Positions 11,938 through 27,069 are shown, counted from the first letter of the stretch. The stretch is 64,000 nucleotides of DNA from Hyphomicrobiales bacterium (GCA_024236415.1 JACKKN010000014.1:13045-77044), one strand, 5' to 3'. Notes: generated by a model not told the origin, from the letters alone. Made by a program: numbers and translations.

Positions 11938-13101
11938 TCAGGCCCGGCCCAGGGCCGCCACCGCGGCGGCGACGCCGGACCCGGCCAGGGGCGCCTGGGC
12001 CGCGGCCAGGCCCAGTTCGACCCCGGCCAGCACCCCGGCCAGGCGGGCATCGTTGATCTCGCCCAGGTGGCCGATGCGGAACACCTTGCCCTTCAGCGGG
12101 CCCAGCCCGTTGCCGAGCGCGATGTTCGCCGTCTCGAGGATCACCGCGCGCAGGCGGTCGGCGTCCTGCCCGTCGGGCACGCGCACGGCGGTCAGGGACG
12201 GCGAGTGCTCGTCGGGGTGGCGGCACTGCACCTCCCAGCCCCAGGCGGCCACGGCGGCGCGGGTGGCGGCGGACAGGCGCCGGTGCCGCGCGAACACGTT
12301 GGCCAGGCCCTCCTCGGCCAGCATGTCCAGGGACTCGGCCAGGCCGTACAGCAGGTTGGTGGCCGGGGTGTAGGGGAACAGGCCGTCGCCGTTCATGGCC
12401 AGCATGGGCGCCCAGTCCCAGTAGCCGCGGGGGAAGCCGGCGGTCTTGGCCGCCGCCAGGGCGCGCGGGCCGATGGCGTTGAAGCCCAGGCCCGGCGGCA
12501 GCATCAGCCCCTTCTGCGAGCCGCACACGGTCACGTCCACGCCCCAGTCGTCGGGGCGGTACTCGGTGCAGGCCAGGGACGACACCGTGTCCACCAGCAG
12601 CAGGGCGCCGTGGCCGGCCGCGTCCATGGCCGCGCGCACCTGGGGCAGGCGGCTGGCGACCCCGGTCGAGGTCTCGTTGTGCACCACCATCACCGCCTTG
12701 ACGGCGCCGTCGCGGTCGTCGCGCAGGCGGTCCTCGATGGCCTGGGGGTCGGCGCCGTGGCGCCAGTCGCCGGGCAGGACCTCGGCGACCAGGCCCAGGC
12801 GGTCGGCCAGGACGCACCACTGGGTCGAGAACTGGCCGGTCTCGGCGCACAGCACCCGGTCGCCGGGCGACAGGGTGTTGACCAGGGCCGCCTCCCAGGC
12901 GCCGGTGGCCGAGGACGGGTAGGCGACCACCGGGTACTCGGTGCCGAACACGCCGCGCAGGCGCCCCAGCACGTCGCGGGCCAGGGCCTGGAACTCGGGG
13001 CCGCGGTGGTCGATGGTCGGCCGGGCCATGGCCCGCAGCACCCGTTCGGGCACGTTGCTGGGGCCGGGGATCTGCAACAGGTGGGGGCCGGGCGCGGCCA
13101 T
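11938..13101 (-). CDS. class V aminotransferase (serine-glyoxylate / alanine-glyoxylate type)
   Basis: 387-aa ORF. MAAPGPHLLQIPGPSNVPERVLRAMARPTIDHRGPEF is a typical AGXT-family N-terminus. The PLP-lysine region CGSQKGLMLPPGLGF is present. Confidence 0.85.
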   Translation of the reverse strand: MAAPGPHLLQIPGPSNVPERVLRAMARPTIDHRGPEFQALARDVLGRLRGVFGTEYPVVAYPSSATGAWEAALVNTLSPGDRVLCAETGQFSTQWCVLADRLGLVAEVLPGDWRHGADPQAIEDRLRDDRDGAVKAVMVVHNETSTGVASRLPQVRAAMDAAGHGALLLVDTVSSLACTEYRPDDWGVDVTVCGSQKGLMLPPGLGFNAIGPRALAAAKTAGFPRGYWDWAPMLAMNGDGLFPYTPATNLLYGLAESLDMLAEEGLANVFARHRRLSAATRAAVAAWGWEVQCRHPDEHSPSLTAVRVPDGQDADRLRAVILETANIALGNGLGPLKGKVFRIGHLGEINDARLAGVLAGVELGLAAAQAPLAGSGVAAAVAALGRA

Positions 13102-13170
13102 GGCGCGTCCTCCGTCGGTTGTGTCGGTCGGCGTCAGGATAGGGGCTGGCGCGGGCCGCGTACAGGTGGC

Positions 13171-16100
13171 CTATTCGGCGGCCGCGGTGGTGGCCGGGGT
13201 GCCGGCGTCGGCGCCGGCGTCGGCGGCGCGGCCCTCGGGCCGGCGCAGCTTGTCCAGGTACAGGTAGATGACCGGGGTCAGGAACAGGGTGATCACCTGC
13301 GACACGGCCAGGCCGCCGACCACGGTGATGCCCAGCGGCGCCCGCGCCTCGGCCCCGGCGCCGTGGCCCAGGGCGATGGGCAGGGCGCCGGCAAGGGCGG
13401 CGAAGGTGGTCATCATGATCGGCCGGAAGCGCAGCAGGCAGGCCTCGTAGATGGCCGCCTCGGGGGCCATGCCCTCGCGCTGCCGCTGCAGGGCGAAGTC
13501 GATCATCATGATGGCGTTCTTCTTGACGATGCCGACCAGCATGATGACGCCGACGAAGGCGTACAGCGTCAGCGGCAGGTCGAAGGCCATCAGCGCCAGC
13601 AGCGCGCCCAGGGCCGCCGCCGGCAGGCCCGACAGGATGGTCAGGGGGTGGATGAAGCTTTCGTACAGGATGCCCAGCACCAGGTACACCACTACCACCG
13701 CCAGGAACAGCAGCAGCCCCATGTTGCGCAGCGAGTCCTCGAACGCCTCGGCGGTGCCGCCGAACTGGGCCGACAGGGAGGCCGGCATCTGGATGCGGCT
13801 TTCCAGGTCGCGCACCTGCTGGATGGCGGTGCCCAGGGACACATCGGGCGCCAGGTTGAACGAGATGGTTACCGCCGGCAGCAGGCCCTGGTGGTTGATG
13901 GCCAGGGGGCCGACCTGGGTGGTCACCCGGGTCACGGTGTCGAGGCGGATCTGCTTGCCGTTGGCGGCGGTGACGAACAGTTGCGACAGGCCCTCGGCGC
14001 TGCGCTGGTAGGCCGGGTCGACCTCCAGCACCACCGAGTACTGGGCCGACGAGGTGTAGATGGTGGAGATCTTCTTGGACCCGAAGGCGGCCGCCAGCAC
14101 CGTCTCGATGGCGCGCGCGTCGACCCCCAGGGCGGCGGCGCGGTCGCGGTCGATGCTGACCAGCACGGTCGGGCTCTTGATCTGCAGGTCGCTGGTCACG
14201 TCCTGGAAGCCCGGCAGCTTGCGGATCTCCTGGCGCATGATCTCGGCCCACTCGTTCAGCTTCTCCAGGTCCAGGTCCTGCAGGGTGTACTGGTACTCGG
14301 CGTTGCTGAGCCGCCCGCCGACCCGGATCGCCGGTGGGTTCAGCACGAAGGCGCGGATGCCGGGCACCGAGTTCAGCTTGCGCCGCAGGTCCTGGACGAT
14401 GACGTTGATGTCCTTCTCGGGGCGGTTCTCGGGGGTCTTCAGGCGCAGCAGCATGAAGCCCTGGTTGTTGGTGCGCCGGCCGCCCGAGCTGCCGGCCCGC
14501 TCCATCACCGCCTCGATGTTGGGGTCGGCGGCGGCGATGCGCGCGATCTGGTGCTGGTAGGCCACCAGGGCGTCGTAGGACGCCTCGTCGCCGGCCTGGG
14601 TGCGCACCAGCAGGCGGCCGGTGTCCTCGGCCGGCAGGAAGTCCTTCTGGATCACGGAGTACAGGTAGACGGTGGCCAGGATGGTGGCGACGAACGACAG
14701 GAACACCACGAAGCGGTGGCGCAGGCACCAGCGCAGCCCGGCGGCGTAGCCGGCCAGCATGGCGCCGTAGGCGGCCTCGGTCCAGCGGAACAGGGCGCCG
14801 TGGCTCTCCCCGTGGCGGTGCAGGAAGCGCGAGCACATCATCGGGGTCAGGGTCAGCGACACCAGCCCCGAGGCCAGCACCGCGGCGGTGATGGTCAGCG
14901 CGAACTCGTTAAGCAGGCGCCCGATCATGCCGCCCATGAAGATGATGGGGATGAACACGGCCACCAGCGAGGCGGTCATGGACAGGATGGTGAACGCCAC
15001 CTCGCGCGAGCCGACCAGGGCGGCGGCGCGGCCGTCCAGGCCCTTTTCGCGGTGGCGTACGATGTTCTCCAGCATGACGATGGCGTCATCGACCACGAAC
15101 CCCACCGACAGGGTCAGGGCCATCAGCGACAGGTTGTTGAGGCTGAATCCCATGGCGTACATGGCGCTGAAGGTGCCGATCACCGAGATCGGCAGGGCGA
15201 TCGACGAGATCACCGTCGCCATCAGGTTGCGCAGGAACACGAAGATCACCATCACCACCAGGCCGGCGGCCAGCACCAGGGTGAACTGCACGTCGTTGAT
15301 GGAGCTGCGGATGCCCACCGAGCGGTCGTACATGACCTCGATGTTGATGGCCGCCGGGATCTGCTCGCGCAGCTTGGGCAGGGCCTTGGAGATCTCGTCG
15401 ACGATGCGCACCGTGTTCGACCCCGGCTGGCGGTACACCGCCATCAGCATGCCCTGCTCGTTGCCGAAGAAGGTCGAGGACTTCTGGTTGTCGACGTCGT
15501 CGATGGCGCGGCCGATGTCCTTGATGCGCACCGGCGCGCCGTTGCGGTAGGCCACCACCAGGTCGTTGTAGCCGGCGGCCCGCTCCAGGCTGCCGGTGGT
15601 CTTGATCGACGCCTCCTGGCTGGCGCCGGCGATGGTGCCCGTGGGCAGGTTGGTGTTGCCGGCCTGCACCGCCTGCTCGACCTGCGGCAGGCTCAGGTTG
15701 CGGGTCACCAGGGCGCCCGGGTCGACCTGGATGCGCACGGCGTACCGCTGCCGGCCCCAGAACTGCACCTGGGCCACCCCGTCGATGGTCGACACCTGCT
15801 GTTGCAGCACCGTCTCGGCATAATCGTTGAGGGTCGCCACCGGCAGCGACGGCGAGCTGAGGCGCAGGTAGTAGATGGCGAAGTTGGCCGGGTTGCGCTT
15901 GCGCAGGGACGGCGTCTCGGGCATGTCGTCGGGCAGGGCCCGCTGCGCCGCCGAGATGGCGGTCTGGATGTCCAGCGCCGCGGCGTCGATGTCGCGGTCG
16001 AGTTCGAATTCCAGGGTCACGCTGGTCGAGCCCAGGGAACTGACCGAGGTCATCTTGCGGATGCCGGCGACCTGGGCGAACTGGTTCTCCAGCGGCGTCG

Positions 16101-16290
16101 CCACCGAGGCGGCCATGGTTTCGGGGCTGGCGCCGGGCAGGCTGGCGCTGACCTCGATCACCGGGAAGTCCACGTTGGGCAGCTCGGCGATGGGCAGGGC
16201 GCGGTAGGCGATGATGCCGAACAGCACCAGGGCGGTCATCACCAGGGTGGTCATCACCGGGCGATGGATGCAGACCTCGGGCAGCCTCAT
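13171..16290 (-). CDS. RND efflux transporter, inner-membrane permease (AcrB/MdtB/C family)
   Basis: 1039-aa ORF. The N-terminus ...CIHRPVMTTLVMTALVLFGIIAYRALPIAELPNVDFPVIEVSASLPGASPE is a canonical RND start. The 12-TM layout with two large periplasmic loops is evident from hydrophobicity. Confidence 0.95.
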   Translation of the reverse strand: MRLPEVCIHRPVMTTLVMTALVLFGIIAYRALPIAELPNVDFPVIEVSASLPGASPETMAASVATPLENQFAQVAGIRKMTSVSSLGSTSVTLEFELDRDIDAAALDIQTAISAAQRALPDDMPETPSLRKRNPANFAIYYLRLSSPSLPVATLNDYAETVLQQQVSTIDGVAQVQFWGRQRYAVRIQVDPGALVTRNLSLPQVEQAVQAGNTNLPTGTIAGASQEASIKTTGSLERAAGYNDLVVAYRNGAPVRIKDIGRAIDDVDNQKSSTFFGNEQGMLMAVYRQPGSNTVRIVDEISKALPKLREQIPAAINIEVMYDRSVGIRSSINDVQFTLVLAAGLVVMVIFVFLRNLMATVISSIALPISVIGTFSAMYAMGFSLNNLSLMALTLSVGFVVDDAIVMLENIVRHREKGLDGRAAALVGSREVAFTILSMTASLVAVFIPIIFMGGMIGRLLNEFALTITAAVLASGLVSLTLTPMMCSRFLHRHGESHGALFRWTEAAYGAMLAGYAAGLRWCLRHRFVVFLSFVATILATVYLYSVIQKDFLPAEDTGRLLVRTQAGDEASYDALVAYQHQIARIAAADPNIEAVMERAGSSGGRRTNNQGFMLLRLKTPENRPEKDINVIVQDLRRKLNSVPGIRAFVLNPPAIRVGGRLSNAEYQYTLQDLDLEKLNEWAEIMRQEIRKLPGFQDVTSDLQIKSPTVLVSIDRDRAAALGVDARAIETVLAAAFGSKKISTIYTSSAQYSVVLEVDPAYQRSAEGLSQLFVTAANGKQIRLDTVTRVTTQVGPLAINHQGLLPAVTISFNLAPDVSLGTAIQQVRDLESRIQMPASLSAQFGGTAEAFEDSLRNMGLLLFLAVVVVYLVLGILYESFIHPLTILSGLPAAALGALLALMAFDLPLTLYAFVGVIMLVGIVKKNAIMMIDFALQRQREGMAPEAAIYEACLLRFRPIMMTTFAALAGALPIALGHGAGAEARAPLGITVVGGLAVSQVITLFLTPVIYLYLDKLRRPEGRAADAGADAGTPATTAAAE

Positions 16291-17489
16291 GACCGGGTCT
16301 CCTGGGCCACGGTGGGCCCGCTCTTGCCGTCACCCTTGGGCGCCACCTTGGCGCCCTTGAAAAGGCGCAGCTGGCCGTCGGTGACCACGGTCTCGCCGGC
16401 CTCGACCCCGCTGGTCAGGACCGTCAGGTCCTCCACCTCGGGGCCGGTGGTGACGGCGCGCAGGACCGCGGTCTTGTCGTCGCCGACCACCCACACGAAC
16501 AGGCCCGTCTGGTTGATCTGGATCGACCGCGACGGCACCAGCACCGCCTCGTCCAGGGTCCTAAGCAGCACCCGGGCGCGGGCGAACTGGCCCGGCACCA
16601 GGCGCTCGTCGGCGTTCTCGAAGCTGGCCAGCAGCTCGATGGTGCCGGTGCTGGCGTCGACCTGGTTGTTGATGAAGAACAGCTTGCCGGTGGCCACCAC
16701 CCCGTCGCTGGCCTGGGTGCTGAGGTCCACGCTCAGGGTCTCGCCGGCCATGCGCCGGCGCAGCTCGTCCAGGTGCCGCTCGGGCAGGCTGAAGGAGACG
16801 TAGACGGGCTTGGTCTCGGTGATCACCAGCAGCGGGGTCTCGTTGGCCTTGACGATGTTGCCCACCGACACCGGCAGGTTGCCCACCCGCCCGTCGATGG
16901 GCGAGCGGATGGTGGCGTAGGCCAGGTTCAGGTTGGCCAGCTCCACCGCCGCCTCCGAGGCGCGGACCGAGGCCCGGGTGGTGTCCACCAGGGTCGCGGC
17001 GTCGTCCAGCCGGGTCTGCGGCGAGAAGCCCTTGGCCGACAGGATCTTCAGGCGCTTGAAGTCGGCCACCGCCTTGTCGTGGTTGACCTTGTCGCGGGCC
17101 AGGGCGGCCTCGGCCTCCTTCAGGCGCGCCTGCAGGGGGCGGGCGTCCAGGCGGAACAGCACGTCGCCCCGGTGCACGGTCTGCCCTTCGCGCACCAGGG
17201 CCTCGATCAACTGGCCCTCGATCTGCGACTTGACCGAAACGGTGGAACGGGCCTTGACCGTGCCCACCCCCTCCAGGTGGATGGGCACGGCGCGCAGGAT
17301 CGCCTGGGCCACCCGCACCGGCACCGGCCGGGCCTTGGCGCCGGCCGCCTTGGGCTGGGCCTCGGGGGTCGGCACCAGGAAGGCCGGCAGCCAGGGCGCC
17401 AGGGCCTGGCGGGCGTCGGGGAACAGGAGCGCCCCGCCTGCCAGGACGCAAAGCAGCAGCAGGCCGTTGAGCAGTCGTTTCACCATCAA
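16287..17489 (-). CDS. RND efflux periplasmic adaptor (membrane fusion protein)
   Basis: 400-aa ORF with an N-terminal anchor (MMVKRLLNGLLLLCVLAGG) and a coiled-coil hairpin region. Lipoyl and beta-barrel motifs are present (IRSPIDGRVGNLPVSVGNIV). 4-nt overlap with the pump gene. Confidence 0.9.
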   Translation of the reverse strand: MMVKRLLNGLLLLCVLAGGALLFPDARQALAPWLPAFLVPTPEAQPKAAGAKARPVPVRVAQAILRAVPIHLEGVGTVKARSTVSVKSQIEGQLIEALVREGQTVHRGDVLFRLDARPLQARLKEAEAALARDKVNHDKAVADFKRLKILSAKGFSPQTRLDDAATLVDTTRASVRASEAAVELANLNLAYATIRSPIDGRVGNLPVSVGNIVKANETPLLVITETKPVYVSFSLPERHLDELRRRMAGETLSVDLSTQASDGVVATGKLFFINNQVDASTGTIELLASFENADERLVPGQFARARVLLRTLDEAVLVPSRSIQINQTGLFVWVVGDDKTAVLRAVTTGPEVEDLTVLTSGVEAGETVVTDGQLRLFKGAKVAPKGDGKSGPTVAQETRS

Positions 17490-17662
17490 TCAAGATTCCA
17501 AGCGCGCGCCACGCGACCGTTCCGCGGCACCGGGCACCGGGCGGGATCGCGTGCCGTGGGCGGCCGGGCCGCCACACCATCTTTTCAACATGGGAACAAT
17601 TCGCAGGTCCGGTCACAGTTTACAGCAAAAGCGGCGAAAAGACGCAAATGATTCTCACCTGG

Positions 17663-20317
17663 TCACGGGGCGCCGGCCGGGGGCTGCGACAGGCGCCGGG
17701 CCGCCACCTTGCGGCCGTAGTCCAGGGCGAAGATCAGCAGCGGCCCCAGCAGGGCGGCGCCATAGACCGGCATCGGAACCGGCCCCGTGCCCAGCACGAA
17801 ACCCACCGCCGGCACGTACAGGATGGCCCAGGACGCGGCCAGCTCGAACAGCACCCCGGCCACCAGCAGGGGGTTGGCGAAGGCGCCGCGGTCGATCCCG
17901 GTGCCGAAGCGCGAGCGGCGGCCGAACAGGTTGCCGATCTGCATCAACAGGATCGACGACAGGGCGATGCCGGTGGCCGACCGGTACAGGGGATCGTCGG
18001 TGGCCAGGGCATCGCCCCAGTGCCAGCCGCCGCCGTGCAGGACCCAGAAGAACAGGGACAGCGAGAACGCCGCCTCGATCAGCCCCAGGAAGCCGTAGGA
18101 GTGGGCGATCAGGCCGGCGGTCAACAGGCCCTGGTGCCGGTCGCGCGGCGGCTGGCGCATGACCTCGGGGTCCGGCTTCTCCTGGCCCAGGCTCATGGAC
18201 GGGATGATGTCGGTGCCCAGGTCGATGGCCAGGATCTGGATCACGGTCAGGGCCAGGGGCACGGGGAACAGGATGTACAGCAGGTAGGGGATGATCTCGG
18301 GCCCGTTGCTGACCAGCACGTAGTTGGTGAACTTGCGGATGTTGGCGAAGATGGTGCGCCCTTCCTCGATGCCGGCGACGATGGAGGCGAAGTTGTCGTC
18401 CAGCAGGATCACCTGGGCTGCCTCGCGGGCCACGTCGGTGCCGGTGCGGCCCATGGCCACGCCCACGTCCGCGGCCTTCAGGGCCGGCGCGTCGTTGACC
18501 CCGTCGCCGGTCACCGCCACCACCTTGTCCATCTGGTGCAGGGCGGCGACGATCTTCATCTTCTGCTCCGGCGTGGCGCGGGCGAACACGGCGGCGCCGG
18601 CCTGCAGCGCCGCCACCAGCTCGCCCTCGCGCAGGCGATCGAGTTCGTCGCCGGTGATGACCCGGTCCGCCCGGTCGTCGCCCTCGTCCAGGATGCCGGC
18701 GCGGCGGGCGATGGCGGCGGCGGTGTCCGGGTGGTCGCCGGTGATCATGACCATGGCGATCCCGGCGGCGCGGCACTGGGCGGCGGCGCCCGGCACCTCC
18801 GGCCGGATCGGGTCCTCCAGGCCCAGGAAGCCCAGCAGGGTCAGGTCGTGCTCCAGGGCGTCCTGGTCCATCCCGGCCTCGGCCGCCGCCAGGTCCCGCG
18901 CCGCCACGGCGATCACCCGATGGCCACGCCGGGCCAGGTCGTGGACCGTGGCCTCGGCGGCGGCCCTGTCGCCGGCCGACAGCAGGGGGGCGAGGGATTC
19001 CCAGGCGCCCTTGACCACGAAGCGCGCACCCGTGATGCCGGCCGAGCGCCGCTTTTCGACGTCGAAGGCGAAGTCGCGGGCCACGGCGGCGCGCAGGGCG
19101 GCCACGTCGCCGCCGTCGGCGGCCAGCCGCTCGGCGATGGCCACGTCCAGGGGGTCGCCCGAGAAGCCGCCGTCGCCCGCGGCCACGTCCGACGCCGCCA
19201 GGGCGGCGGCCAGCAGCGGGCCGGCCTCGGCCTCGCCGCCGTCGGCGCCGGCCAGGCGGGTCACGGTCAGGCGGTTGGCGGTCAGGGTGCCGGTCTTGTC
19301 GGTGCAGATGACGTGCACGGCGCCCAGGGCCTCGACCGCGTTCAGGCTCTTGACCAGGACGTTGCGCCGGGCCATGCGCAGGCTGCCCATGGCCAGGGAC
19401 AGGGTGAAGGTGGGCAGCAGCCCCTCGGGCACGTTGGCGACGATGATGCCCATCATGAACACCAGGCTGACCCACAGGGACGCCCCGGTGGCGACGCCGT
19501 AGGCGAAGAAGGTGGCGCCCAGCCCGACCGCGATCAGGGACAGCACCCGCACCATCTGCGCGGTCGAATGCTCCAGCGGCGACACGGTGCGCCGGATGTC
19601 GCGCGACAGCAGGGCGATGCGCCCGAACTGCGACCGGAACCCGGTGGCGAAGACCACCGCCCGGCCGCTGCCGCGCTGTACCGAGCAGCCGGCGAACAGG
19701 ATGTTGTCGGCCTCCAGCAGGGTGGCGTCCGAGGCCGTCGGGGTGCGCGGCAGGGGCAGGGACTCGCCGGTCAGGGGGGCGTTGTTGACCACCACGTCGG
19801 CGCCGGCGACCAGGCGCGCGTCGGCCGGGATGCGGTCGCCCTCGCGCAGGGCGACGACGTCGCCCGGCACCAGGTCCTCGGCCGGCACCGAGGATTCCGT
19901 GCCGCCGCGCAGCACGCGCACGTCGCGCGGCAGGAACTTGGCGATCTCCTCCATGGCCTTCTCGGCGCGGAACTCCTGGACGAAGCTGAACAGGGCGTTC
20001 AGCAGCGACACCCCGAACAGGGCGTAGCCCAGCACGTCCATGTTCTCGCCGGGCTGCACGGCCTCGCCGACGAAGCAGATGGCGGCGGCCAGGATCAGCA
20101 GCAGGGTGAAGAAGTTGGTGAACTGGCGCGCCAGCGAGCGCAGCCACCACAGGCCCTTGGGCGCCTCCAGGGTGTTGGGGCCGACCTCGGCCCGGCGCGC
20201 CGCCGCCTCGGCCGCGTCCAGTCCCTCGGGGCGGGAGCCCAGCAGGGCCGCCGCCTCTTCGGGCGCCACGTTCTGGATCTGGCTGCCGGGGGCCGGAAAG
20301 GGGGCGTCGCCGCTCAT
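17663..20317 (-). CDS. cation-transporting P-type ATPase, P2-like
   Basis: 884-aa ORF with ICTDKTGTLTANRL (phosphorylation motif), LTGES, VPEGLLPT in TM4, MITGDHPDTA and VTGDGVNDAPALKAADVGVAMG. There is no CPx heavy-metal motif. The start overlaps the upstream gene's stop (ATGA). Confidence 0.9.
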   Translation of the reverse strand: MSGDAPFPAPGSQIQNVAPEEAAALLGSRPEGLDAAEAAARRAEVGPNTLEAPKGLWWLRSLARQFTNFFTLLLILAAAICFVGEAVQPGENMDVLGYALFGVSLLNALFSFVQEFRAEKAMEEIAKFLPRDVRVLRGGTESSVPAEDLVPGDVVALREGDRIPADARLVAGADVVVNNAPLTGESLPLPRTPTASDATLLEADNILFAGCSVQRGSGRAVVFATGFRSQFGRIALLSRDIRRTVSPLEHSTAQMVRVLSLIAVGLGATFFAYGVATGASLWVSLVFMMGIIVANVPEGLLPTFTLSLAMGSLRMARRNVLVKSLNAVEALGAVHVICTDKTGTLTANRLTVTRLAGADGGEAEAGPLLAAALAASDVAAGDGGFSGDPLDVAIAERLAADGGDVAALRAAVARDFAFDVEKRRSAGITGARFVVKGAWESLAPLLSAGDRAAAEATVHDLARRGHRVIAVAARDLAAAEAGMDQDALEHDLTLLGFLGLEDPIRPEVPGAAAQCRAAGIAMVMITGDHPDTAAAIARRAGILDEGDDRADRVITGDELDRLREGELVAALQAGAAVFARATPEQKMKIVAALHQMDKVVAVTGDGVNDAPALKAADVGVAMGRTGTDVAREAAQVILLDDNFASIVAGIEEGRTIFANIRKFTNYVLVSNGPEIIPYLLYILFPVPLALTVIQILAIDLGTDIIPSMSLGQEKPDPEVMRQPPRDRHQGLLTAGLIAHSYGFLGLIEAAFSLSLFFWVLHGGGWHWGDALATDDPLYRSATGIALSSILLMQIGNLFGRRSRFGTGIDRGAFANPLLVAGVLFELAASWAILYVPAVGFVLGTGPVPMPVYGAALLGPLLIFALDYGRKVAARRLSQPPAGAP

Positions 20318-21156
20318 GCCGGCCCCCGGTACAGGGCCACGTCGCAGGGGGTGTCGCGCAGCAGCTCCTCCATGGGGTCGCCGAAGCGGAACAGGCGCGC
20401 CAGGCTTGCCCGCGGCGCCTCCAGGTAGATCAGGTCGCTGTCCAGGCGGCCGGCCTCGATCACCACCTGCTTGACCCAGTCGTCGGACACCCGCACCAGG
20501 GGATGGACGTGGGCCGGGTCCAGGCGCAGGGCGGCGGCGACCTCGGCGGCCACGGCCTGGGTCCGCTCCGACCCCGCGGCGCGCAGGCGCCCGGCGCGGC
20601 GCGCGTCCAGGCGGCGGAAGGCGACGCTGCCCAGGGTCACCACCCGCAGCACGTGGACGCGGCGGATGTCGGCCCCCAGCAGACCCAGGCAGGTCAGCCC
20701 CTGGCCCGGCTGGCGCGGGTGGTCGCCGACCGGGGCCAGGACCCGCCGCGCCACCCCCAGCAGGCCCGGCCGCACCACGCGCAGGGCCAGGGTGTGGAAC
20801 CGCCCGTGGGCCAGCAGTTGGGCCGAGATGGTGCCGGCCAGGTAGCCGCGCCGGCCGCCACGCACGCGCAGGCCGCAGACCAGCACCGTGCCGGGCCCCG
20901 GCGGCAGGCGCTCGACCAGGCCGCGGAACACGCCGCCGTGGACCGGGATGACCTCGACCTCGGCGCGCACGCCCTGGGCCGCGGCCTGGGCGGTCAGGGC
21001 CTCGAACCGGTCGGCCAGGGCCGGGGCCGGCAGGCCCACGTCCTCGCCGTACAGGACCGTCAGGACGCGCTCGGGCGTGTGCGCCGCCATGCGCACGGCG
21101 TAGCGGGCGATCCAGTCGCCGTTGACCGAGCCGTCATAGGCCAGGAAGACGGCCAT
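20314..21156 (-). CDS. tandem universal stress protein (UspA-like) domain protein
   Basis: 280-aa ORF made of two ~130-aa halves, each with a USP-like layout (MAVFLAYDGSVNGDWIARYAVRMA...VLVCG and RVLAPVGDH...CDVALYR). The assignment is pattern-based only. Confidence 0.55.
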   Translation of the reverse strand: MAVFLAYDGSVNGDWIARYAVRMAAHTPERVLTVLYGEDVGLPAPALADRFEALTAQAAAQGVRAEVEVIPVHGGVFRGLVERLPPGPGTVLVCGLRVRGGRRGYLAGTISAQLLAHGRFHTLALRVVRPGLLGVARRVLAPVGDHPRQPGQGLTCLGLLGADIRRVHVLRVVTLGSVAFRRLDARRAGRLRAAGSERTQAVAAEVAAALRLDPAHVHPLVRVSDDWVKQVVIEAGRLDSDLIYLEAPRASLARLFRFGDPMEELLRDTPCDVALYRGPA

Positions 21157-21162
21157 GGCCCG

Positions 21163-21720
21163 CTAGTCGTCCCGGACGCGGAAGGTGGCGTGGCACTCGC
21201 GGCAGACGGCGGTGATCTCCTGCAGGCGTTCCAGCACCCGGCGGTGGTCGTCCAGGCTGGGCGGGTCATAGGCGAACCAGGCCGCCTCGGCGAACCGGCC
21301 GGCGGCGGCGTGGAAGCGGATGGCCAGGACGCGGAACCGCTTGGCCGCGTCCACGTCGCCCGGGTCGGTCACGTTCAGGTCCGGGTCGCGGGCGATGGCC
21401 TTCTCCATGAACCGCCGGCGCACGGTCAGCACGTCCTCCTCGGACATGCCGCGGGCCAGCAGGGATTCCCAGGTCTTGTGGCCGAAATCCATGTGGAAGG
21501 CGGCGACCTTGGCGGCGCGCCGGAAATCGCCGGCCGCCACGGCGGCGACGATGTCGTCCAGGTTGCCCAGGTGGGCGCGCATGTCGGCCAGGAACTGGCC
21601 GCGCACCGCGTCGGGCAGGTTCAGGTTCTCGCGCCCGCCGCCCGCGGCCGGCGCCGTCCCGGCACCGCCCGCCAACACCAGCAGGGCCAGCAGCAGTCCC
21701 TTACCCAGTCCAGCACGCAT
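21163..21720 (-). CDS. class II c-type cytochrome (cytochrome c'/c-556-like), exported
   Basis: ORF 21163..21831 trimmed to the ATG at 21720 (GGAGGGG RBS; MRAGLGKGLLLALLVLAGGAGTAPA is a signal peptide). A single CxxCH (CRECH) lies 11 residues from the C-terminus of a ~150-aa helical mature protein, the arrangement typical of class II cytochromes c. Confidence 0.55.
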   Translation of the reverse strand: MRAGLGKGLLLALLVLAGGAGTAPAAGGGRENLNLPDAVRGQFLADMRAHLGNLDDIVAAVAAGDFRRAAKVAAFHMDFGHKTWESLLARGMSEEDVLTVRRRFMEKAIARDPDLNVTDPGDVDAAKRFRVLAIRFHAAAGRFAEAAWFAYDPPSLDDHRRVLERLQEITAVCRECHATFRVRDD

Positions 21721-21746
21721 CTCGCCCCTCCGTTCGATCCTTGGGG

Positions 21747-22436
21747 TCACTGGCCCGGCACCAGGGCCTGGCGCTGCTGTTCGGCGAAGCGGGCGATGGC
21801 CGCCGCCCCGGCGCGGTCGCAGGGCACGCACAGCAGGGCGTTGACCTCGTCCACCGCCTCGGGCGACAGCGGCCGGGCGGTGACCAGTCCCAGGTAGGTT
21901 CCCGCCAGGCGCAGGTCCGGGTCAACCTTCTCCAGCTCCTCCTGGTAGTTGGCCAGCAGGTACAGGGGCGATTTCCAGGCCGGGCTGTGGCCGGGCGCGA
22001 TGGTGGCGCGCACGGCGTCCAGCCGGCCCAGGTTGCGCCCGGCCATGCGGTCGCCGGCGTCCTTGCGGGCGGGGGTGTCGGCGCACCAGCTGCGGTCGGC
22101 GGCGGCCAGGCGCGGCGCCTGGGGCCCGGCGCCGGTGACCGGCCCGGCCGCCGGAGCCGAGGCCGTGGGGACGCCGCCGTCGCCGCCGTCCCCGCCGCCG
22201 GAGTACCGGTTGCGGTTGGTGGGTCCGGGACCCGTGCCCTGGCCCTGGTTGCCGTGGCCGGCGGTGGGGCCGGGCCCGGCGCCCAGGCCCTGGGCCGCGG
22301 CCGGAACCGCGGTCCAGGCGACGGCCACCAGGGCTAGGGCCAACAGGGCGGCGAGCGACCGGCGGGCGGAGAGGCGTGGCGCCGTCCGCGTGGGGGAGCG
22401 GGCACTTCCGTCTCGGTCTTGGTCGCGACGTGTCAT
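21747..22436 (-). CDS. exported Gly-rich hypothetical protein, distant member of the family encoded by the two upstream genes
   Basis: ORF 21747..22463. I prefer the ATG at 22436 (GGAGAGG, 6-nt spacer), but the GTG at 22463 overlapping the upstream stop is an alternative. It has a Tat-like SARRSLAALLALALVAVA leader and a Gly-rich stretch (GHGNQGQGTGPGP...GGGDGGDGG). The C-terminus has degenerate echoes of the paralogue domain (GRNLGRLDAVRA, KSPLYLLANYQEEL). Confidence 0.55.
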   Translation of the reverse strand: MTRRDQDRDGSARSPTRTAPRLSARRSLAALLALALVAVAWTAVPAAAQGLGAGPGPTAGHGNQGQGTGPGPTNRNRYSGGGDGGDGGVPTASAPAAGPVTGAGPQAPRLAAADRSWCADTPARKDAGDRMAGRNLGRLDAVRATIAPGHSPAWKSPLYLLANYQEELEKVDPDLRLAGTYLGLVTARPLSPEAVDEVNALLCVPCDRAGAAAIARFAEQQRQALVPGQ

Positions 22437-22459
22437 GGCGCACCTCTCCGCCGCACCGG

Positions 22460-23380
22460 TCACTCGCCGTGGCCGGCCAGGATGCCGGCGCGGACCTTGT
22501 CGGCCTTGGCGGCCAGGGCCGCCGTCTCGTCGGCGGTCAGGCTGAGGCCGAAAATCGTGTTCAGGGCGGTCACCGAGTCGGTGCCGATGGGGATCGACTT
22601 GTCCGACGCCGAGCCCAGGAAGATGGCCGCCAGGTCGAGCACCGAGGCCGGCGTCACGCCGGGCAGGGCGGTCTGCCGGTTGGCCAGCAGGTCCTTGTAG
22701 AGGCCCAGGTTCTGCAGCGGCGAGTCGATGCGCGGCGTGGTGGCGTAGGCGCCGGCCAGGGTGTCGGCAGCGCTTTCGGCGGTCGATTCATACAGCGCCG
22801 CCATGGTGCCGTCCCAGTTCGCCAGGGCCTCGTCCAGGGCGCGCTGGATCACGTGGCCCGGGGACCGCGCCACGTTCAGGCGGCCCAGTTCCACCTCGGG
22901 GATGCCGCCCTTGGCCCAGGCCGGGGCGCCGCCGCGGCCGCCGGACTCGTGGCCGGCCGCGCCGGGGTCGGAATCGTGCGCCGCACCGTGGCCGCCCTGG
23001 CCACCCTTGCCGCCCTTGCCCTCGTGGGTCCCTTCATGTTCGGTGTCGGCCTGGTCCTCGTGCTCGTGCTCCGAGCCGGCGGCGCCGGGCACGTGCGACT
23101 TGCCGCCGCCACCCTCGTGGCCGCTTTCCGGGTCGTGCTGGCTGCCCTTGCCCTTGTGGCCGGCGCCCTTGCGCCCGCCCAGGTGCTTGCCGCCCGACCC
23201 GTGCGCGCCGCGGCCGCCGGGCGCGGCGGCCTGGGCGGTCGGGCCGTCGGCCATCCGCACCACCGGCCCGCCGGGGCCGGGGTCGATGTCGATGCCGAGC
23301 ACCCCCGGTGCCATCAGCGCGAACAGGCCGGCGCCGCCCAACAGGGCCGCCCGGCGGAATCCGTCAGTGAATGTCTTCAT
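22460..23380 (-). CDS. exported Gly/His-rich hypothetical protein (paralogue B)
   Basis: 306-aa ORF with an RR-containing leader (MKTFTDGFRRAALLGGAGLFALMAP). The Gly/Lys/Glu/His low-complexity region has 13 His in roughly 95 residues. The conserved C-terminal ~150 aa are shared with 23469..24257 and end in GHGE. Confidence 0.7.
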   Translation of the reverse strand: MKTFTDGFRRAALLGGAGLFALMAPGVLGIDIDPGPGGPVVRMADGPTAQAAAPGGRGAHGSGGKHLGGRKGAGHKGKGSQHDPESGHEGGGGKSHVPGAAGSEHEHEDQADTEHEGTHEGKGGKGGQGGHGAAHDSDPGAAGHESGGRGGAPAWAKGGIPEVELGRLNVARSPGHVIQRALDEALANWDGTMAALYESTAESAADTLAGAYATTPRIDSPLQNLGLYKDLLANRQTALPGVTPASVLDLAAIFLGSASDKSIPIGTDSVTALNTIFGLSLTADETAALAAKADKVRAGILAGHGE

Positions 23381-23468
23381 GGATCGCCTCCCGTTCCAGG
23401 GGCCGGCCGCGCTGGAGCGGCCGGCACCGGTGTCGGGCGGCGCGCAGGCGCCGCCCGCGGACGGAAGG

Positions 23469-24257
23469 CTATTCGCCGTGACCCGTGTTGATGGCGGCCC
23501 GCACGTCCTCGGCCATGTCGGCCACGGCGGCCACGTCGGCCTCGCTCATCGTCAACCCGAAGATGGTGTTGATGGCGATCACCGTGTCCGTGGTCACGGC
23601 CACCGTCTTGTCCGAGGCCGATCCCAGCAGGATCGCCGCCAGGTCAAGGGTCGACGCCGGGGTGACGCCGGGCAGGGGCGAGGTGCCGCTGGTCAGCAGG
23701 TCGCGGTACAGGCCCAGGTTCTCCAGGGGCGAATCGATGCGGACCACGTTGTCGTAGTCCGTTTCCAGCAGGTTGGCGGCGGCTTCGGCCGTCAGCTCGT
23801 AGAACGACTCCATGGTGGCGGTGTCGAAGTTCTTCAGCGCCTCCTCGACCGCGCTGTCCAGCACGTGCGCGGGGGCGCGGGCGACGTTCAGGCGGCCCAG
23901 CTCGACCTCCGGGATGCCCTCCTGGGCCCAGACGGGCTTGCCGCCGCCGCCGTCGGGCTTGCCGGCGCCGGAGCGCGGACCCTTGCCGTCGCTGTCGTCA
24001 CCGGGGCCGCCCTGGCCCTTGCCGATTCCGCCGATGGCGCCGGGGCCGTTGCCCTGGCCGCCGCCGCCGGAACCCATGGCCTGCTTGCCTTTTCCGCCGC
24101 CGCCGCCGTCACCGTCCTCGTCGGCCAGGGCCGTGCCGGTCAGGCTGAGGCCGCTGTCCGTGAAGTGGGCGACGAGCAGGGGCGTGGCCACCAGGGCCAG
24201 CGCCACGGCGGTGGAAACGAGAAGCCTGTTGAGGATTAATTTTTCTGTGGTTTTCAT
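23469..24257 (-). CDS. exported Gly-rich hypothetical protein (paralogue A)
   Basis: ORF 23469..24290 trimmed to the ATG at 24257 (GGGAGA, 6-nt spacer; MKTTEKLILNRLLVSTAVALALVATPLLVA). It has a G/K/D-rich low-complexity stretch. The C-terminal domain carries GIPEVELGRLNVAR, RIDSPLENLGLYRDLL, LPGVTPASTLDLAAILLGSASDK, NTIFGL and a terminal GHGE. Confidence 0.7.
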   Translation of the reverse strand: MKTTEKLILNRLLVSTAVALALVATPLLVAHFTDSGLSLTGTALADEDGDGGGGGKGKQAMGSGGGGQGNGPGAIGGIGKGQGGPGDDSDGKGPRSGAGKPDGGGGKPVWAQEGIPEVELGRLNVARAPAHVLDSAVEEALKNFDTATMESFYELTAEAAANLLETDYDNVVRIDSPLENLGLYRDLLTSGTSPLPGVTPASTLDLAAILLGSASDKTVAVTTDTVIAINTIFGLTMSEADVAAVADMAEDVRAAINTGHGE

Positions 24258-24570
24258 CGTGCTTCTCCCTTCTCGATCGGAAGAGCCCACAGCGCGTCGC
24301 GACGGGAGTCCGCCATTCGTGGGTCAGAAGCACGGGCCGCTCGCCGCTGGCGAGCCTGGCATCTTCTCGAGCGAACCCTTTCAGGTTCAACGTCAATTGT
24401 ACCATTTATCATAAATTATCGGTCCGCTAATATGACAGACCAAGTCGACAGGTTTTGCACGCCTGCCATGCCATAATCGCGCGGACGAATTTTTGTTGCG
24501 GGGCCCACGGCATTTTTCAAGGGGCCCGGCGGGCCGGGCCCGCCAGACAGCTTGAACGAGGGGGAATTCC

Positions 24571-27069
24571 ATGCACCGCGGGCTCCGGCGCCCAGTCCCG
24601 AATCGCCTTGCGGCCGCCGTCCTGCTGGGCGCCGCCGCGGCGCTGGCCGCGGGCGCCGCCGCGGCCGGGGTGGCGCCGCCGTTCACCGGCCACTACGCCG
24701 GCGCCCAGGTCGGCTTCGGCGCCCTGGAGACGGACCTGGACGGCCCGCGCGCCGGCACCACGGCCGCCGACGACACCAGCGCCAACGGTTTCGTGGGCGG
24801 CCTGTTCGTGGGCTACGGCCGCGGGTTCGGCAGCCTGTACCTGGGCGGCGAGCTGGAGGCCGCCGCCGCCGACATCGAATCGGCGCAGCGCCTGGCCGGG
24901 GGCGGACGCCTGCAGGACCTGCGCAAGGGGCCCGAGGCCGCGGCCACCCTGCGCGCCGGCTACCTGGTGGACGGCCGCACGCTGCTCTTTGGCCGCGCCG
25001 GCCTGGCCTGGGGCCGGTTCGCCGCCGACATCCGCCCCGCCGACGGCTCCATCCACCGCACCGAGCAGGACCTGTGGGGCCTGCGATTCGGCCTGGGCGG
25101 CGAGTTCGCGGCCAGCCCGCACCTGGCCCTGCGGCTGGAATACGTGCACACCCTGTGGGACGCCTTCGGCCAGCCGTGGAGCGAGACCGGCGTGGCCGGG
25201 GTCGACACCTACGACACCGGCGAGGGCACGGTGCGGGTGGGCCTGGCCTGGCACTTCACGCCGCTCTACGACGGCGCGGCCGATGACGAACCGGGATACG
25301 TCCAGGCCCGGCGCGGCGCCGCGGGCGCCTACGTGGGCCTGCAGACCGGCTACCAGATCCTGTCCGTGCGCCAGAAGGGGCCGCGCGGCGCCGCCGACCT
25401 GTCGAAGAGCGACGACCTGGGCCGCGGCGGGTTCCAGGGCGGCCTGTTCGGCGGCTTCGGCACCTTCTTCGACCGCCTGTACGTGGGCGCCGACTTCGAG
25501 GGCAGCGGTTCGGACACCGAGCTGGAGTCGTCGCGCCTGCCGGGCAGCCGGGTGACCCGGGTGACCAAGCGCTACGACGTGGCGGCGGCGGCGCGGCTGG
25601 GCTACCTGCTGACCCCGGGGACCCTGATCTACGGCCGCCTGGGCGTGGCGGCGGCGCGGTTCAACACCGACGTGATCCTGGCCGACGGCCGCGCCTACGA
25701 CCAGGACGACACCCAGATCGGCATCCGCGCCGGCGCCGGCGCCGAGGTCGCCCTGGGCGACCCGTGGTTCCTGCGGCTGGACTATGCCTACACCCGCTAC
25801 AACGGCTACGAGGTGGACCGCACCAGCGCCGGGCAGCTCGCCGTCGGCGACGTGCACCTGGAGAACTTCGAGAACGAGGAATCCGCCTTCCGGGTCGGCC
25901 TGGGCTACCGCTTCGGCCAGCCGCAGCCGCGCGGCCGCACCACCGCCGCGGCCACCGGCCTGGCCCTGGGGTCGTTCACCGTGCACCCGACCCTGACCCT
26001 GTCCGAGACCTACGACGACAACATCTTCTCGACCCGGGCCATGACTGTGGACGACTTCGTCACCGTGATCACCCCGGCCCTGGCCGTCGAGTCGCAGTGG
26101 GACCGGCACCTGTTGAAGGTCAACGCCGACGCCGGCGTGGTCCGCTACGCCGACAACGGGGCCGAGGACCACGAGAACTACTCGGCCGCCGTCGACGGCC
26201 GCTACGACCTGACCGACAACGCCAACCTGTTCGCCGGCGCGGCCTATGCCCTGGAGCACGAGGGCCGCGAGTCGGCCGACGACGTGAGCGGCAGCGAGCC
26301 CACGCGGTTCGACCGGGTCAACGCCTATGCCGGCGCTTTCGCCCGCCGCGGCAACGCCTCGGTGCGGGCCGGCGGCACCTTCCGCCGCCTGGACTTCGAC
26401 GACGTGCCGGCCACCGGCGGCATGATCAACAACGACGACCGCGACCGCCGGGTCTACACCGGCGGCGTCTGGGCCGGCTATGTGGTGATGCCGCGGGTCG
26501 AGCTGTACGGCCAGGCGGCGGTGGACGTCCGCCGCTACGACTCGGCGGTGGACGACGCCGGCTTCGACCGCGATTCCGACGGCCAGCGGTACCTGGGCGG
26601 GGTCAAGGTGGAGCTGCGCCGCGGGGTCAAGGCCGACCTGTACGCCGGCTACCTGACCCAGGACTACGACGACCCCAGGCTGGCCGACGTGACCGCACCC
26701 CTGATCGGCGCCAAGGTCGAGATCCCGGCCACCGCGGCCACCACCATCACCGGCTACCTGGACCGGACCCTGTCCGAGACCACCCTGGCCGGGGCCTCGG
26801 GCTCGGTCTACACCTCGGTCGGGCTCAAGGTGGGGCACGACCTGACCCCGGACCTGCGCCTGAACCTGGATGCGTCTTACGGCAACGACGACTACCGCGG
26901 CATCAAGCGCAGCGACGATATCCTGCAACTGGGCCTGGGCCTGAAATACGGCGTCACCCCCAACCTGTCCCTGGGCGCCAGCTACGGCTACCGCAACCGG
27001 GACTCGGACGTGCTGGGCCAGAACTACAGCGGACAGCAGGTGTCGCTGTTCGTGGAAGGGGCCTTCTAG
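24571..27069 (+). CDS. outer-membrane protein with three consecutive beta-barrel-type modules
   Basis: 832-aa ORF with a signal peptide (LAAAVLLGAAAALAAGAAAAG). Two Omp25/OmpA-beta-barrel-like modules end in GLAWHF (aa 229, nt 25257) and GLGYRF (aa 448, nt 25914). A ~380-aa module follows with alternating-hydrophobic strands, resembling the putative beta-barrel porin-2 type, and ends in the C-terminal VEGAF. GAGGGGGA RBS. Confidence 0.8.
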   Translation: MHRGLRRPVPNRLAAAVLLGAAAALAAGAAAAGVAPPFTGHYAGAQVGFGALETDLDGPRAGTTAADDTSANGFVGGLFVGYGRGFGSLYLGGELEAAAADIESAQRLAGGGRLQDLRKGPEAAATLRAGYLVDGRTLLFGRAGLAWGRFAADIRPADGSIHRTEQDLWGLRFGLGGEFAASPHLALRLEYVHTLWDAFGQPWSETGVAGVDTYDTGEGTVRVGLAWHFTPLYDGAADDEPGYVQARRGAAGAYVGLQTGYQILSVRQKGPRGAADLSKSDDLGRGGFQGGLFGGFGTFFDRLYVGADFEGSGSDTELESSRLPGSRVTRVTKRYDVAAAARLGYLLTPGTLIYGRLGVAAARFNTDVILADGRAYDQDDTQIGIRAGAGAEVALGDPWFLRLDYAYTRYNGYEVDRTSAGQLAVGDVHLENFENEESAFRVGLGYRFGQPQPRGRTTAAATGLALGSFTVHPTLTLSETYDDNIFSTRAMTVDDFVTVITPALAVESQWDRHLLKVNADAGVVRYADNGAEDHENYSAAVDGRYDLTDNANLFAGAAYALEHEGRESADDVSGSEPTRFDRVNAYAGAFARRGNASVRAGGTFRRLDFDDVPATGGMINNDDRDRRVYTGGVWAGYVVMPRVELYGQAAVDVRRYDSAVDDAGFDRDSDGQRYLGGVKVELRRGVKADLYAGYLTQDYDDPRLADVTAPLIGAKVEIPATAATTITGYLDRTLSETTLAGASGSVYTSVGLKVGHDLTPDLRLNLDASYGNDDYRGIKRSDDILQLGLGLKYGVTPNLSLGASYGYRNRDSDVLGQNYSGQQVSLFVEGAF

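Follow-up and report, generated by a model that had tools for sequence, protein, structure and literature searches.

Three Evolutionarily Independent Gene Units Appear to Be Juxtaposed in a Six-Gene String of a Hyphomicrobiales Genome

Results and Discussion

The subject of this study is a string of six minus-strand genes at positions 17663-24570 of a 64,000-nucleotide (nt) stretch of DNA from a Hyphomicrobiales bacterium (GCA_024236415.1 JACKKN010000014.1:13045-77044), which is referred to as the window in the following. In the direction of transcription, the string encodes three exported Gly-rich proteins (A, B, and C), a putative class II cytochrome c (D), a tandem universal stress protein (USP), and a P-type ATPase; a large outer membrane protein (OMP) gene is located divergently next to A. 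Based on a comparison of gene neighborhoods, we consider it probable, with an estimate of about 0.8, that three units that evolved independently have come to lie side by side in this lineage, and that the string is not a dedicated six-component system: The units would be the OMP gene together with the divergent genes A-B-C, a class II cytochrome c that stands alone, and a USP-ATPase cassette. The six-gene combination did not recur at any other locus that we sampled, that is, at none of 88 loci of the A family, 10 loci of the USP-ATPase pair, and 9 loci of the D family. A preliminary description of the window had joined the six genes into one envelope module and had itself named a lack of synteny in relatives as one observation that would refute this proposal; for the six-gene set, this synteny is lacking, and the module is not borne out. 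Its remark that no described system has such a composition is true, because the composition appears to be a one-off juxtaposition. Taken as a whole, the observations of that description are partly confirmed and its interpretation is partly supported: The parts are right, the module is not, and the tempting designation of a new six-component envelope system is unsupported.

Gene Neighborhoods in Other Genomes

For the A family, 80 genome and eight metagenome loci of alpha- and gammaproteobacterial origin were queried with each protein encoded in the window cluster, and neighbors within 10 kb were recorded. A BBP2_2 barrel gene lies near A in 34 of these 88 loci, a C-family gene accompanies it in 28, and A itself is duplicated in 16, while neither a D-like gene (0/88) nor a USP gene (0/88) was found at this distance. 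P-type ATPase genes are present at four of the 88 loci, 6-8 kb away from A; because they reach only 238-360 bits, compared to 1025-1111 bits for true orthologs, we classify them from their sequences as paralogs. An unbiased clustering of the open reading frames (ORFs) that flank A returned the BBP2 OMP at 28 loci, a small OMP_b-brl porin at 18, mostly in Rhodobacteraceae, C at 17, an OmpR-type regulator at 15, and a kinase at 7, and contained no cluster that resembles D, the USP, or the ATPase. In about one third of the loci, A stands alone amid housekeeping genes; at these A-only loci, which belong to Rhizobiales and some other groups, the neighbors are typA/bipA, pnp, cysS, and catalase genes, which provide no functional clue.

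The USP-ATPase pair is distributed in a different manner from A: Among 60 relatives of the same order, the A domain is encoded in none, yet three carry an orthologous ATPase (60-72% identity), in each case with a tandem USP (44-46%) directly upstream. The outer neighbors of these same-order pairs differ, with an aldo-keto reductase and trmFO in one genome and rodA-PBP2 in another. A sample of 400 genomes of the class contributed four more ATPase orthologs (64-69%), all accompanied by a USP, as well as six homologs at 41-46% identity, none of which has a USP. In the nearest metagenomic relatives, the USP is 67-70% identical and the ATPase fragments on contigs L170 and L171 are 76-83% identical to the proteins of the window; these metagenomic pairs are preceded by a gene for either a molybdopterin oxidoreductase or an M23 peptidase. 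With at least 60% identity as the threshold for orthology, a tandem USP is thus found directly upstream of the ATPase at 10 of 10 loci (seven genomes and three metagenome contigs; 60-83% identity), compared to 0/8 for sister-group homologs of the ATPase (41-48% identity), and the 4-nt overlap of the two genes recurs in P0243, L170, and L171. At none of the 10 orthologous loci was D or any of A, B, and C detected. The genes further upstream are different at each of these loci, from which we conclude, on the basis of gene order, that USP and ATPase form a self-contained cassette.

The context of D was inspected at nine loci, comprising two metagenome places of one homolog and seven genome loci. 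Within 7-10 kb of these D-family genes, neither A/B/C nor a USP or pump gene was found (0/9).

As a separate observation, sample 3300042731 of the Joint Genome Institute (JGI) contains a contig with the order OMP-A-B-C followed by a gene for a protein of 206 amino acids (aa), which ends against a convergent GGDEF/EAL gene, and a USP-ATPase pair (USP 68% identical) on a separate contig of 6.5 kb. If both contigs originate from one relative of the host, the units would be unlinked there.

Architecture of the String and the Stem-Loop between A and B

Both the ORF list and a re-reading of the sequence place six co-directional minus-strand genes between positions 24257 and 17663. Together with the divergent OMP gene, the features are as follows:

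24571-27069, plus strand: OMP gene, 832 aa; OMP_b-brl/OmpA-like barrel repeats in the N-terminal part, BBP2_2 (PF10082) barrel in the C-terminal part
24258-24570, intergenic: AT-rich divergent region between OMP and A with the presumed promoters of both genes
23469-24257, minus strand: gene A, 262 aa, exported; hydrophobic N-terminal signal, Gly-rich disordered linker, and all-alpha C-terminal domain of ~140 aa
23381-23468, minus strand: spacer between A and B, 88 nt; two perfect GC hairpins and an outer stem
22460-23380, minus strand: gene B, a 306-aa paralog of A with a His/Gly/Glu-rich linker
21747-22436, minus strand: gene C, 229 aa, exported, Gly/Pro-rich; two invariant Cys; apparently a distant paralog of A and B
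21163-21720, minus strand: gene D, a 185-aa exported protein assigned to the class II (four-helix-bundle) cytochromes c
20314-21156, minus strand: tandem USP gene, 280 aa; start 6 nt past the stop of D
17663-20317, minus strand: P2-type ATPase gene, 884 aa, similar to Na,K-/H,K-ATPase alpha subunits

From A to the ATPase, the spacers measure 88, 23, 26, 6, and -4 nt, the last value representing an ATGA overlap of 4 nt between the USP and ATPase genes. The preliminary description had given these six genes, their spacings, and the overlap accurately, and the AT-rich divergent region that it had noted between A and OMP coincides with the GC minimum of the neighborhood (0.59 at positions 24200-24599 compared to ~0.70-0.80 around it). 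A scan of positions 13000-25000, which include the divergent region, for the sigma-70 consensus gave no match, a result that carries little weight at ~72% GC. Gene C starts with an ATG preceded by GGAGAGG; use of an alternative in-frame GTG at 22463 would replace the spacer of 23 nt by a 4-nt overlap. All junctions other than A/B (23, 26, 6, and -4 nt) are too short for hairpins, and by our reading of the sequence the USP gene has no convincing Shine-Dalgarno sequence of its own. Downstream of the string, the gap between the stop codon of the ATPase and an RND adaptor gene (17490-17662, 173 nt) shows no significant structure (z -0.23) that would mark the 3' end of the transcript, and transcription may read through from the ATPase into the RND genes.

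On one point concerning this architecture the preliminary description was wrong, namely in its statement that no terminator-like hairpin lies between the genes. Two inverted repeats in the A/B spacer, CGGGCGGCGC/GCGCCGCCCG and GCCGGCCGC/GCGGCCGGC (10 and 9 bp), are perfect and consist of G and C only; in addition, an outer stem engages the Shine-Dalgarno region of B. The spacer is predicted to fold with a free energy of -62.5 kcal/mol, a stability that was reached by none of 200 shuffled sequences (0/200; z = -4.56). Because the hairpin has no U-tract, it was missed by a consensus terminator scan. The spacer was also considered as a dispersed repeat of the repetitive extragenic palindromic type; this candidate was rejected, as the spacer is unique in its own genome. 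The homologous junctions after the first A-type gene are structured too: Canonical terminators with a U-tract are found in L010, L017, and L008, and long perfect stems in L004, L062, and L054. A stem-loop 3' of the first A-type gene hence recurs in distant taxa, with the U-tract terminator form in genomes of lower GC content; the coordinates of such junctions are L008:2900-3017, L010:6904-7004, L017:9415-9560, L004:9808-9893, and L054:2274-2361. We regard the A/B hairpin as a candidate attenuator, partial terminator, or mRNA-stabilizing 3' structure, and the recurrence of a stem-loop at this junction suggests differential expression of A on the one hand and B and C on the other.

Co-Transcription and Alternative Explanations

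If the string consists of three units placed side by side, the following picture would emerge. The first unit would be a widespread, uncharacterized envelope gene set, in which A is the His-poor subunit, B its His-rich paralog, and C a remote paralog; the stem-loop after A would probably make the A transcript the most abundant one, with partial read-through into B and C. The second unit would be a lone periplasmic cytochrome. The third unit would comprise a cytoplasmic tandem USP that is translationally coupled, via the ATGA overlap, to a Na,K-ATPase-like pump: Strict co-inheritance, with which the start/stop overlap agrees, makes direct regulation of the pump by the USP the most likely relationship, and the conserved ligands of sites I and II make monovalent cations the most likely cargo. 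In this genome, co-transcription from B through to the ATPase is plausible, because the spacers are too short for promoters or signals and because the USP lacks a clear ribosome-binding site; such a single transcript would represent co-expression by accident of position and would be no evidence of a shared function.

Several points weigh against independence of the units. As judged from the tight spacing and the lack of a convincing Shine-Dalgarno sequence of the USP, D is probably transcribed together with the USP and the ATPase, perhaps also with translational coupling, and selection may have favored the tight arrangement from B to the ATPase in this lineage. The hairpin after A, which is devoid of a U-tract, may be an mRNA stabilizer rather than a terminator. 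Moreover, the sampling of D contexts is small (nine loci), and the one other genome of the same family in the comparison (76% complete) contains neither unit.

The tight spacing on the 3' side of the string underlies an alternative explanation that we regard as unlikely: D, the USP, and the ATPase would constitute a newly formed, lineage-specific trio, in which the cytochrome relays the respiratory or redox state and is co-translated with a USP-regulated pump, with A, B, and C being unrelated to it. The distance of only 6 nt between the stop codon of D and the start codon of the USP, combined with the lack of a clear ribosome-binding site, suggests translational coupling, and a precedent for connecting USP-pump pairs with oxygen limitation or the redox state is set by the USP gene Rv1996 and the P-type ATPase gene ctpF of Mycobacterium tuberculosis, both members of the hypoxia-responsive DevR (DosR) regulon (PMC3177182). 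However, a cytochrome is found upstream of none of the ten other USP-ATPase loci, and a USP or a pump at none of the nine other D loci; furthermore, no direct contact would be expected between D in the periplasm and the USP in the cytoplasm. We assign a still lower probability to the single co-expressed envelope module, in which exported redox and Gly/His-rich proteins would act together with a USP-regulated pump in metal, cation, or redox-linked stress. The co-directional genes with their short spacers and one ATGA overlap, the single AT-rich divergent region upstream, the potential of the His-rich B to bind metal, and the action of the pump and the exported proteins at the envelope all speak for such a module, but its combination of genes is absent from the 88 A, 10 USP-ATPase, and 9 D loci, a strong hairpin splits A from the remaining genes, hairpins are also present at this junction in homologous loci, and the ligands of the pump are of the Na,K type and not of a transition-metal type. 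Very improbable, finally, is an assembly artifact in the form of a chimeric contig, which would fit an apparent draft metagenome-assembled genome (32 contigs, 86% complete, 2% contamination) and the separation of the three units everywhere else, but not the position of the junctions in short intergenic spacers, in which stop codon, Shine-Dalgarno sequence, and start codon are properly arranged, the uniform GC content of the units (also at third codon positions, GC3), and a contig that spans 126 kb with no mis-join-prone repeat at the junctions.

The OMP-A-B-C Gene Set

What is firmly conserved within positions 17663-24570 belongs to known kinds, and the uncharacterized OMP-A-B-C set is more interesting. 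Attention thereby moves to this set, which is large, belongs to no Pfam family, has no structural relative in the PDB, and is characterized by a conserved His-rich paralog and a conserved hairpin. A search of a collection of 5.8 billion proteins assigned at least 916 homologous protein clusters to the A family, all of which are annotated as hypothetical and none of which belongs to a Pfam family; in addition, 181 stretches of the species-genome collection encode relatives of A. Scans of A, B, and C against Pfam, NCBIfam, PADLOC, and PHROGs returned nothing but one low-complexity PHROG match (E 0.0068). The conserved part of A is its C-terminal domain, which ends in GHGE. An AlphaFold model based on an alignment of 60 sequences predicts nine helices for residues ~125-260 with a predicted local distance difference test (pLDDT) value of >95; neither a Foldseek search of A against the PDB (best E 0.29, template-modeling (TM) score <0.2) nor a comparison of the A-family sequence profile with the PDB gave a significant match.

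B resembles A over a C-terminal region of 166 aa with 60% identity (E 4e-64) and differs from it in the composition of the preceding variable region: In the window genome, B contains 13 His residues before the conserved domain compared to a single one in A, and in 11 of 11 loci with two copies the second copy is the one richer in His (means of 9.5 vs. 1.5). The disordered linker of the His-rich second paralog is also rich in Glu and Asp. Such a linker would be compatible with metal or proton binding. A BLASTP comparison of B with C was negative; because the family profiles of A and C nevertheless matched each other in a profile-profile comparison with 95.4% probability (E 1.8e-8) over the C-terminal ~77 residues of the A/B domain, we assign C as a remote paralog of A and B. 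Two cysteines, C118 and C203, are invariant in the C family and possibly form a disulfide. The N-terminus of C (22340-22436) has a long, charged n-region with ARRSLAAL, a partial twin-arginine-like motif; C homologs such as the one of L008 have ordinary Sec-type signals.

The OMP matches the Pfam families BBP2_2 (4.3e-98, residues 460-829) and OMP_b-brl (4.5e-34). Like the EpsL-type, PEP-CTERM-associated barrels of the BBP2_2 family (PF10082), it is recognized by the BBP2_2 model and, more weakly, by TIGR03016 and EpsL, but it falls under the curated cut-offs of the PEP-CTERM-associated families. It further differs from EpsL-type OMPs in its fusion to OMP_b-brl repeats and in its conserved neighbors, which are A, B, and C and not exopolysaccharide genes. 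Literature searches for PF10082, BBP2, and DUF2320 retrieved only unrelated papers. Fusions of BBP2_2 and OMP_b-brl that measure 813-873 aa likewise adjoin A in L010 and on a JGI contig.

A comparison of positions 21747-27069 of the window with loci L003-L092 distinguished three layouts of the OMP and A/B/C genes: In Acetobacteraceae-like genomes, a minus-strand BBP2 gene is divergent from C-A; in gammaproteobacterial and other genomes, a BBP2 and OMP_b-brl fusion is followed by A, B, and in some cases C; and in Rhodobacteraceae, A, in some cases with a second copy A', precedes a small OMP_b-brl gene. An OmpR-type response regulator was found within a few kb of A-family genes at 15 of 85 loci (e.g., L010:438-2467, L059, L069, and L070), in some cases along with its kinase; no such regulator/kinase pair was seen near the cluster of the window itself.

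It is conceivable, and we put this forward tentatively with all of the roles and wiring that follow, that the conserved core of an OMP barrel and A/B/C represents an undescribed envelope system that occurs in at least 181 proteobacterial species. In such a system, A would be an abundant Gly-rich protein that carries an all-alpha domain without a fold match in the PDB and whose transcript is set apart by a conserved stem-loop or terminator; B, its His-rich paralog, would respond to metal or pH; and C, with its two invariant cysteines, would serve as an adaptor. The three proteins would work with, or be displayed through, the BBP2_2/OMP_b-brl barrel, often under the control of an OmpR-type two-component system, and in the lineage of the window the system may have been transcriptionally wired to the cytochrome and the USP-controlled pump of the Na,K type.

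The Cytochrome and the USP-ATPase Cassette

Three protein assignments of the preliminary description stand: D as a class II cytochrome c, on the basis of a CxxCH motif that is invariant in 42 homologs and of a profile and a predicted fold that resemble cytochrome c'; the USP as a tandem type, given two PF00582 stretches; and the ATPase as P2 and not P1B, in view of its motifs, its Pfam domains, and a missing CPx motif. The details are given in the following.

D carries the sequence CRECH nine residues before its C-terminus, and the corresponding residues C173, C176, and H177 are invariant in the alignment of 42 sequences, as is Met47 in helix 1. D alone scores 14.9 bits against PF01322, which is under the cut-off of 26.5 and hence does not reach the gathering score; 38 of the 42 family members match this model at E <= 0.01. 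The D-family profile retrieves cytochromes c' from the PDB at E 1.1e-6. The AlphaFold model (pLDDT 88.9) predicts a four-helix bundle, and its top Foldseek matches are cytochromes c' with probabilities of 0.99-1.0 and target TM scores of 0.5-0.6 at an E-value of only ~0.07. Both sequence profile and model thus support the assignment of D to a divergent family of class II cytochromes c. With the cytochrome c'/c-556/b562 proteins (PF01322/PF07361), D shares the CxxCH motif a few residues from the C-terminus and the predicted four-helix bundle, and its invariant helix-1 Met resembles that of the Met-His-ligated members c-556 and b562. It differs from class II cytochromes in the Pfam score below cut-off, in the small size of its family (116 representatives at E <= 1e-3 in an exhaustive HMMER search), and in an insert of ~45 residues, modeled as two extra helices between bundle helices 2 and 3. 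A metagenome scan seeded with the single D protein found no relatives. In c-556/b562-type proteins, the helix-1 Met presumably serves as a heme ligand. Because this Met is invariant in the D family, the analogy suggests that the heme of D is six-coordinate with Met-His ligation, which would make D an electron carrier of the c-556/b562 type rather than a gas-binding cytochrome c'. The genome of the window encodes a second D-family paralog (contig C11:61552-61995, L165), which is counted among the nine loci; this protein is shorter and lacks the insert of ~45 residues, and no relatives of A/B/C, USP, or ATPase lie within ~7 kb of its gene.

The biochemistry of USPs is still largely unknown, and their ATP-binding members are characterized by the motif G-x2-G-x9-G-[ST]. 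The USP of the window scores 36.3 bits against PF00582 (cut-off 24), distributed over the two stretches. In its family (alignment A6), residues Y7, D8, G9, S10, W15, Y19, and A20 are invariant, and the loop of domain 1 reads C-G-x-R-x-[RK]-x-G-R-R-G-x-L-x-G-T. The canonical motif is not kept in domain 1, in which G95-x-R97 is followed by G104-x3-G108-T109 and an Arg-rich loop takes the place of the second Gly; domain 2 contains no Gly motif. One may speculate from this loop that the USP senses a phosphorylated ligand. A search for a shared FNR/CRP-type box upstream of the USP orthologs found a near-consensus site at L120 only and no conserved operator.

In the ATPase we read the motifs DKTGT, TGES, VPEGLL in transmembrane helix 4 (TM4), and TGDGVNDAP, and no CPx motif. 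The protein matches the Pfam families Cation_ATPase_N (PF00690), E1-E2_ATPase (PF00122), Hydrolase (PF00702), and Cation_ATPase_C (PF00689), and P1B models score far lower. In searches against the PDB, Na,K-ATPase alpha ranks first (463 bits), followed by SPCA/SERCA (361-367 bits) and LMCA1, a bacterial Ca pump (331 bits). The best NCBIfam match, TIGR01106, reaches 533.8 bits, which is under its cut-off of 946.1, so that the ATPase is not a curated P2C member. By sequence, it is accordingly classified as a P2-type ATPase that is closest to the alpha subunits of Na,K-/H,K-ATPases (P2C-like). This likeness extends to the cation sites: In an alignment with Na,K-ATPase alpha-3, VPEGLL of TM4, SNGPE of TM5, and IDLGTD of TM6 coincide with the ligands of Na,K sites I and II, and the ligand motifs IIVANVPEGLL, SNxPE, and IDLGTD are nearly identical. 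The ATPase differs from the alpha subunits in its length (884 vs. ~1000 aa) and in the lack of an adjacent beta or FXYD subunit gene; for the beta subunit, a single-pass glycoprotein gene was looked for at the locus only, and no candidate was found adjacent to the ATPase. Prokaryotic sequences that resemble Na,K-ATPase alpha and have no beta-assembly motif have been catalogued (PMC9609216).

The strict co-inheritance of a tandem USP with one clade of bacterial Na,K-ATPase-like pumps makes the USP testable as a dedicated partner of an ion pump. A comparable pair in M. tuberculosis consists of Rv1996, which we take to be a tandem USP encoded directly beside ctpF (Rv1997), and of CtpF, presumably likewise a P2-type pump. 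In both cases, a USP gene is paired with the gene of a cation P-type ATPase, the M. tuberculosis pair being hypoxia-regulated; the pair of the window differs in that its genes overlap by 4 nt and in that its pump is nearest to Na,K-/H,K-ATPases. Rv1996 and ctpF both belong to the hypoxia-responsive DevR/DosR regulon, in which separate DevR boxes are given for each of them and neither is assigned operon partners (PMC3177182).

As a minor observation, a weak alignment of transmembrane helix 8 (residues ~788-800) places an Asn at the position of the Asp of the third Na+ site (D926), while Gln923 is kept. If this Asn is real, it would indicate a pump with two cation sites rather than three.

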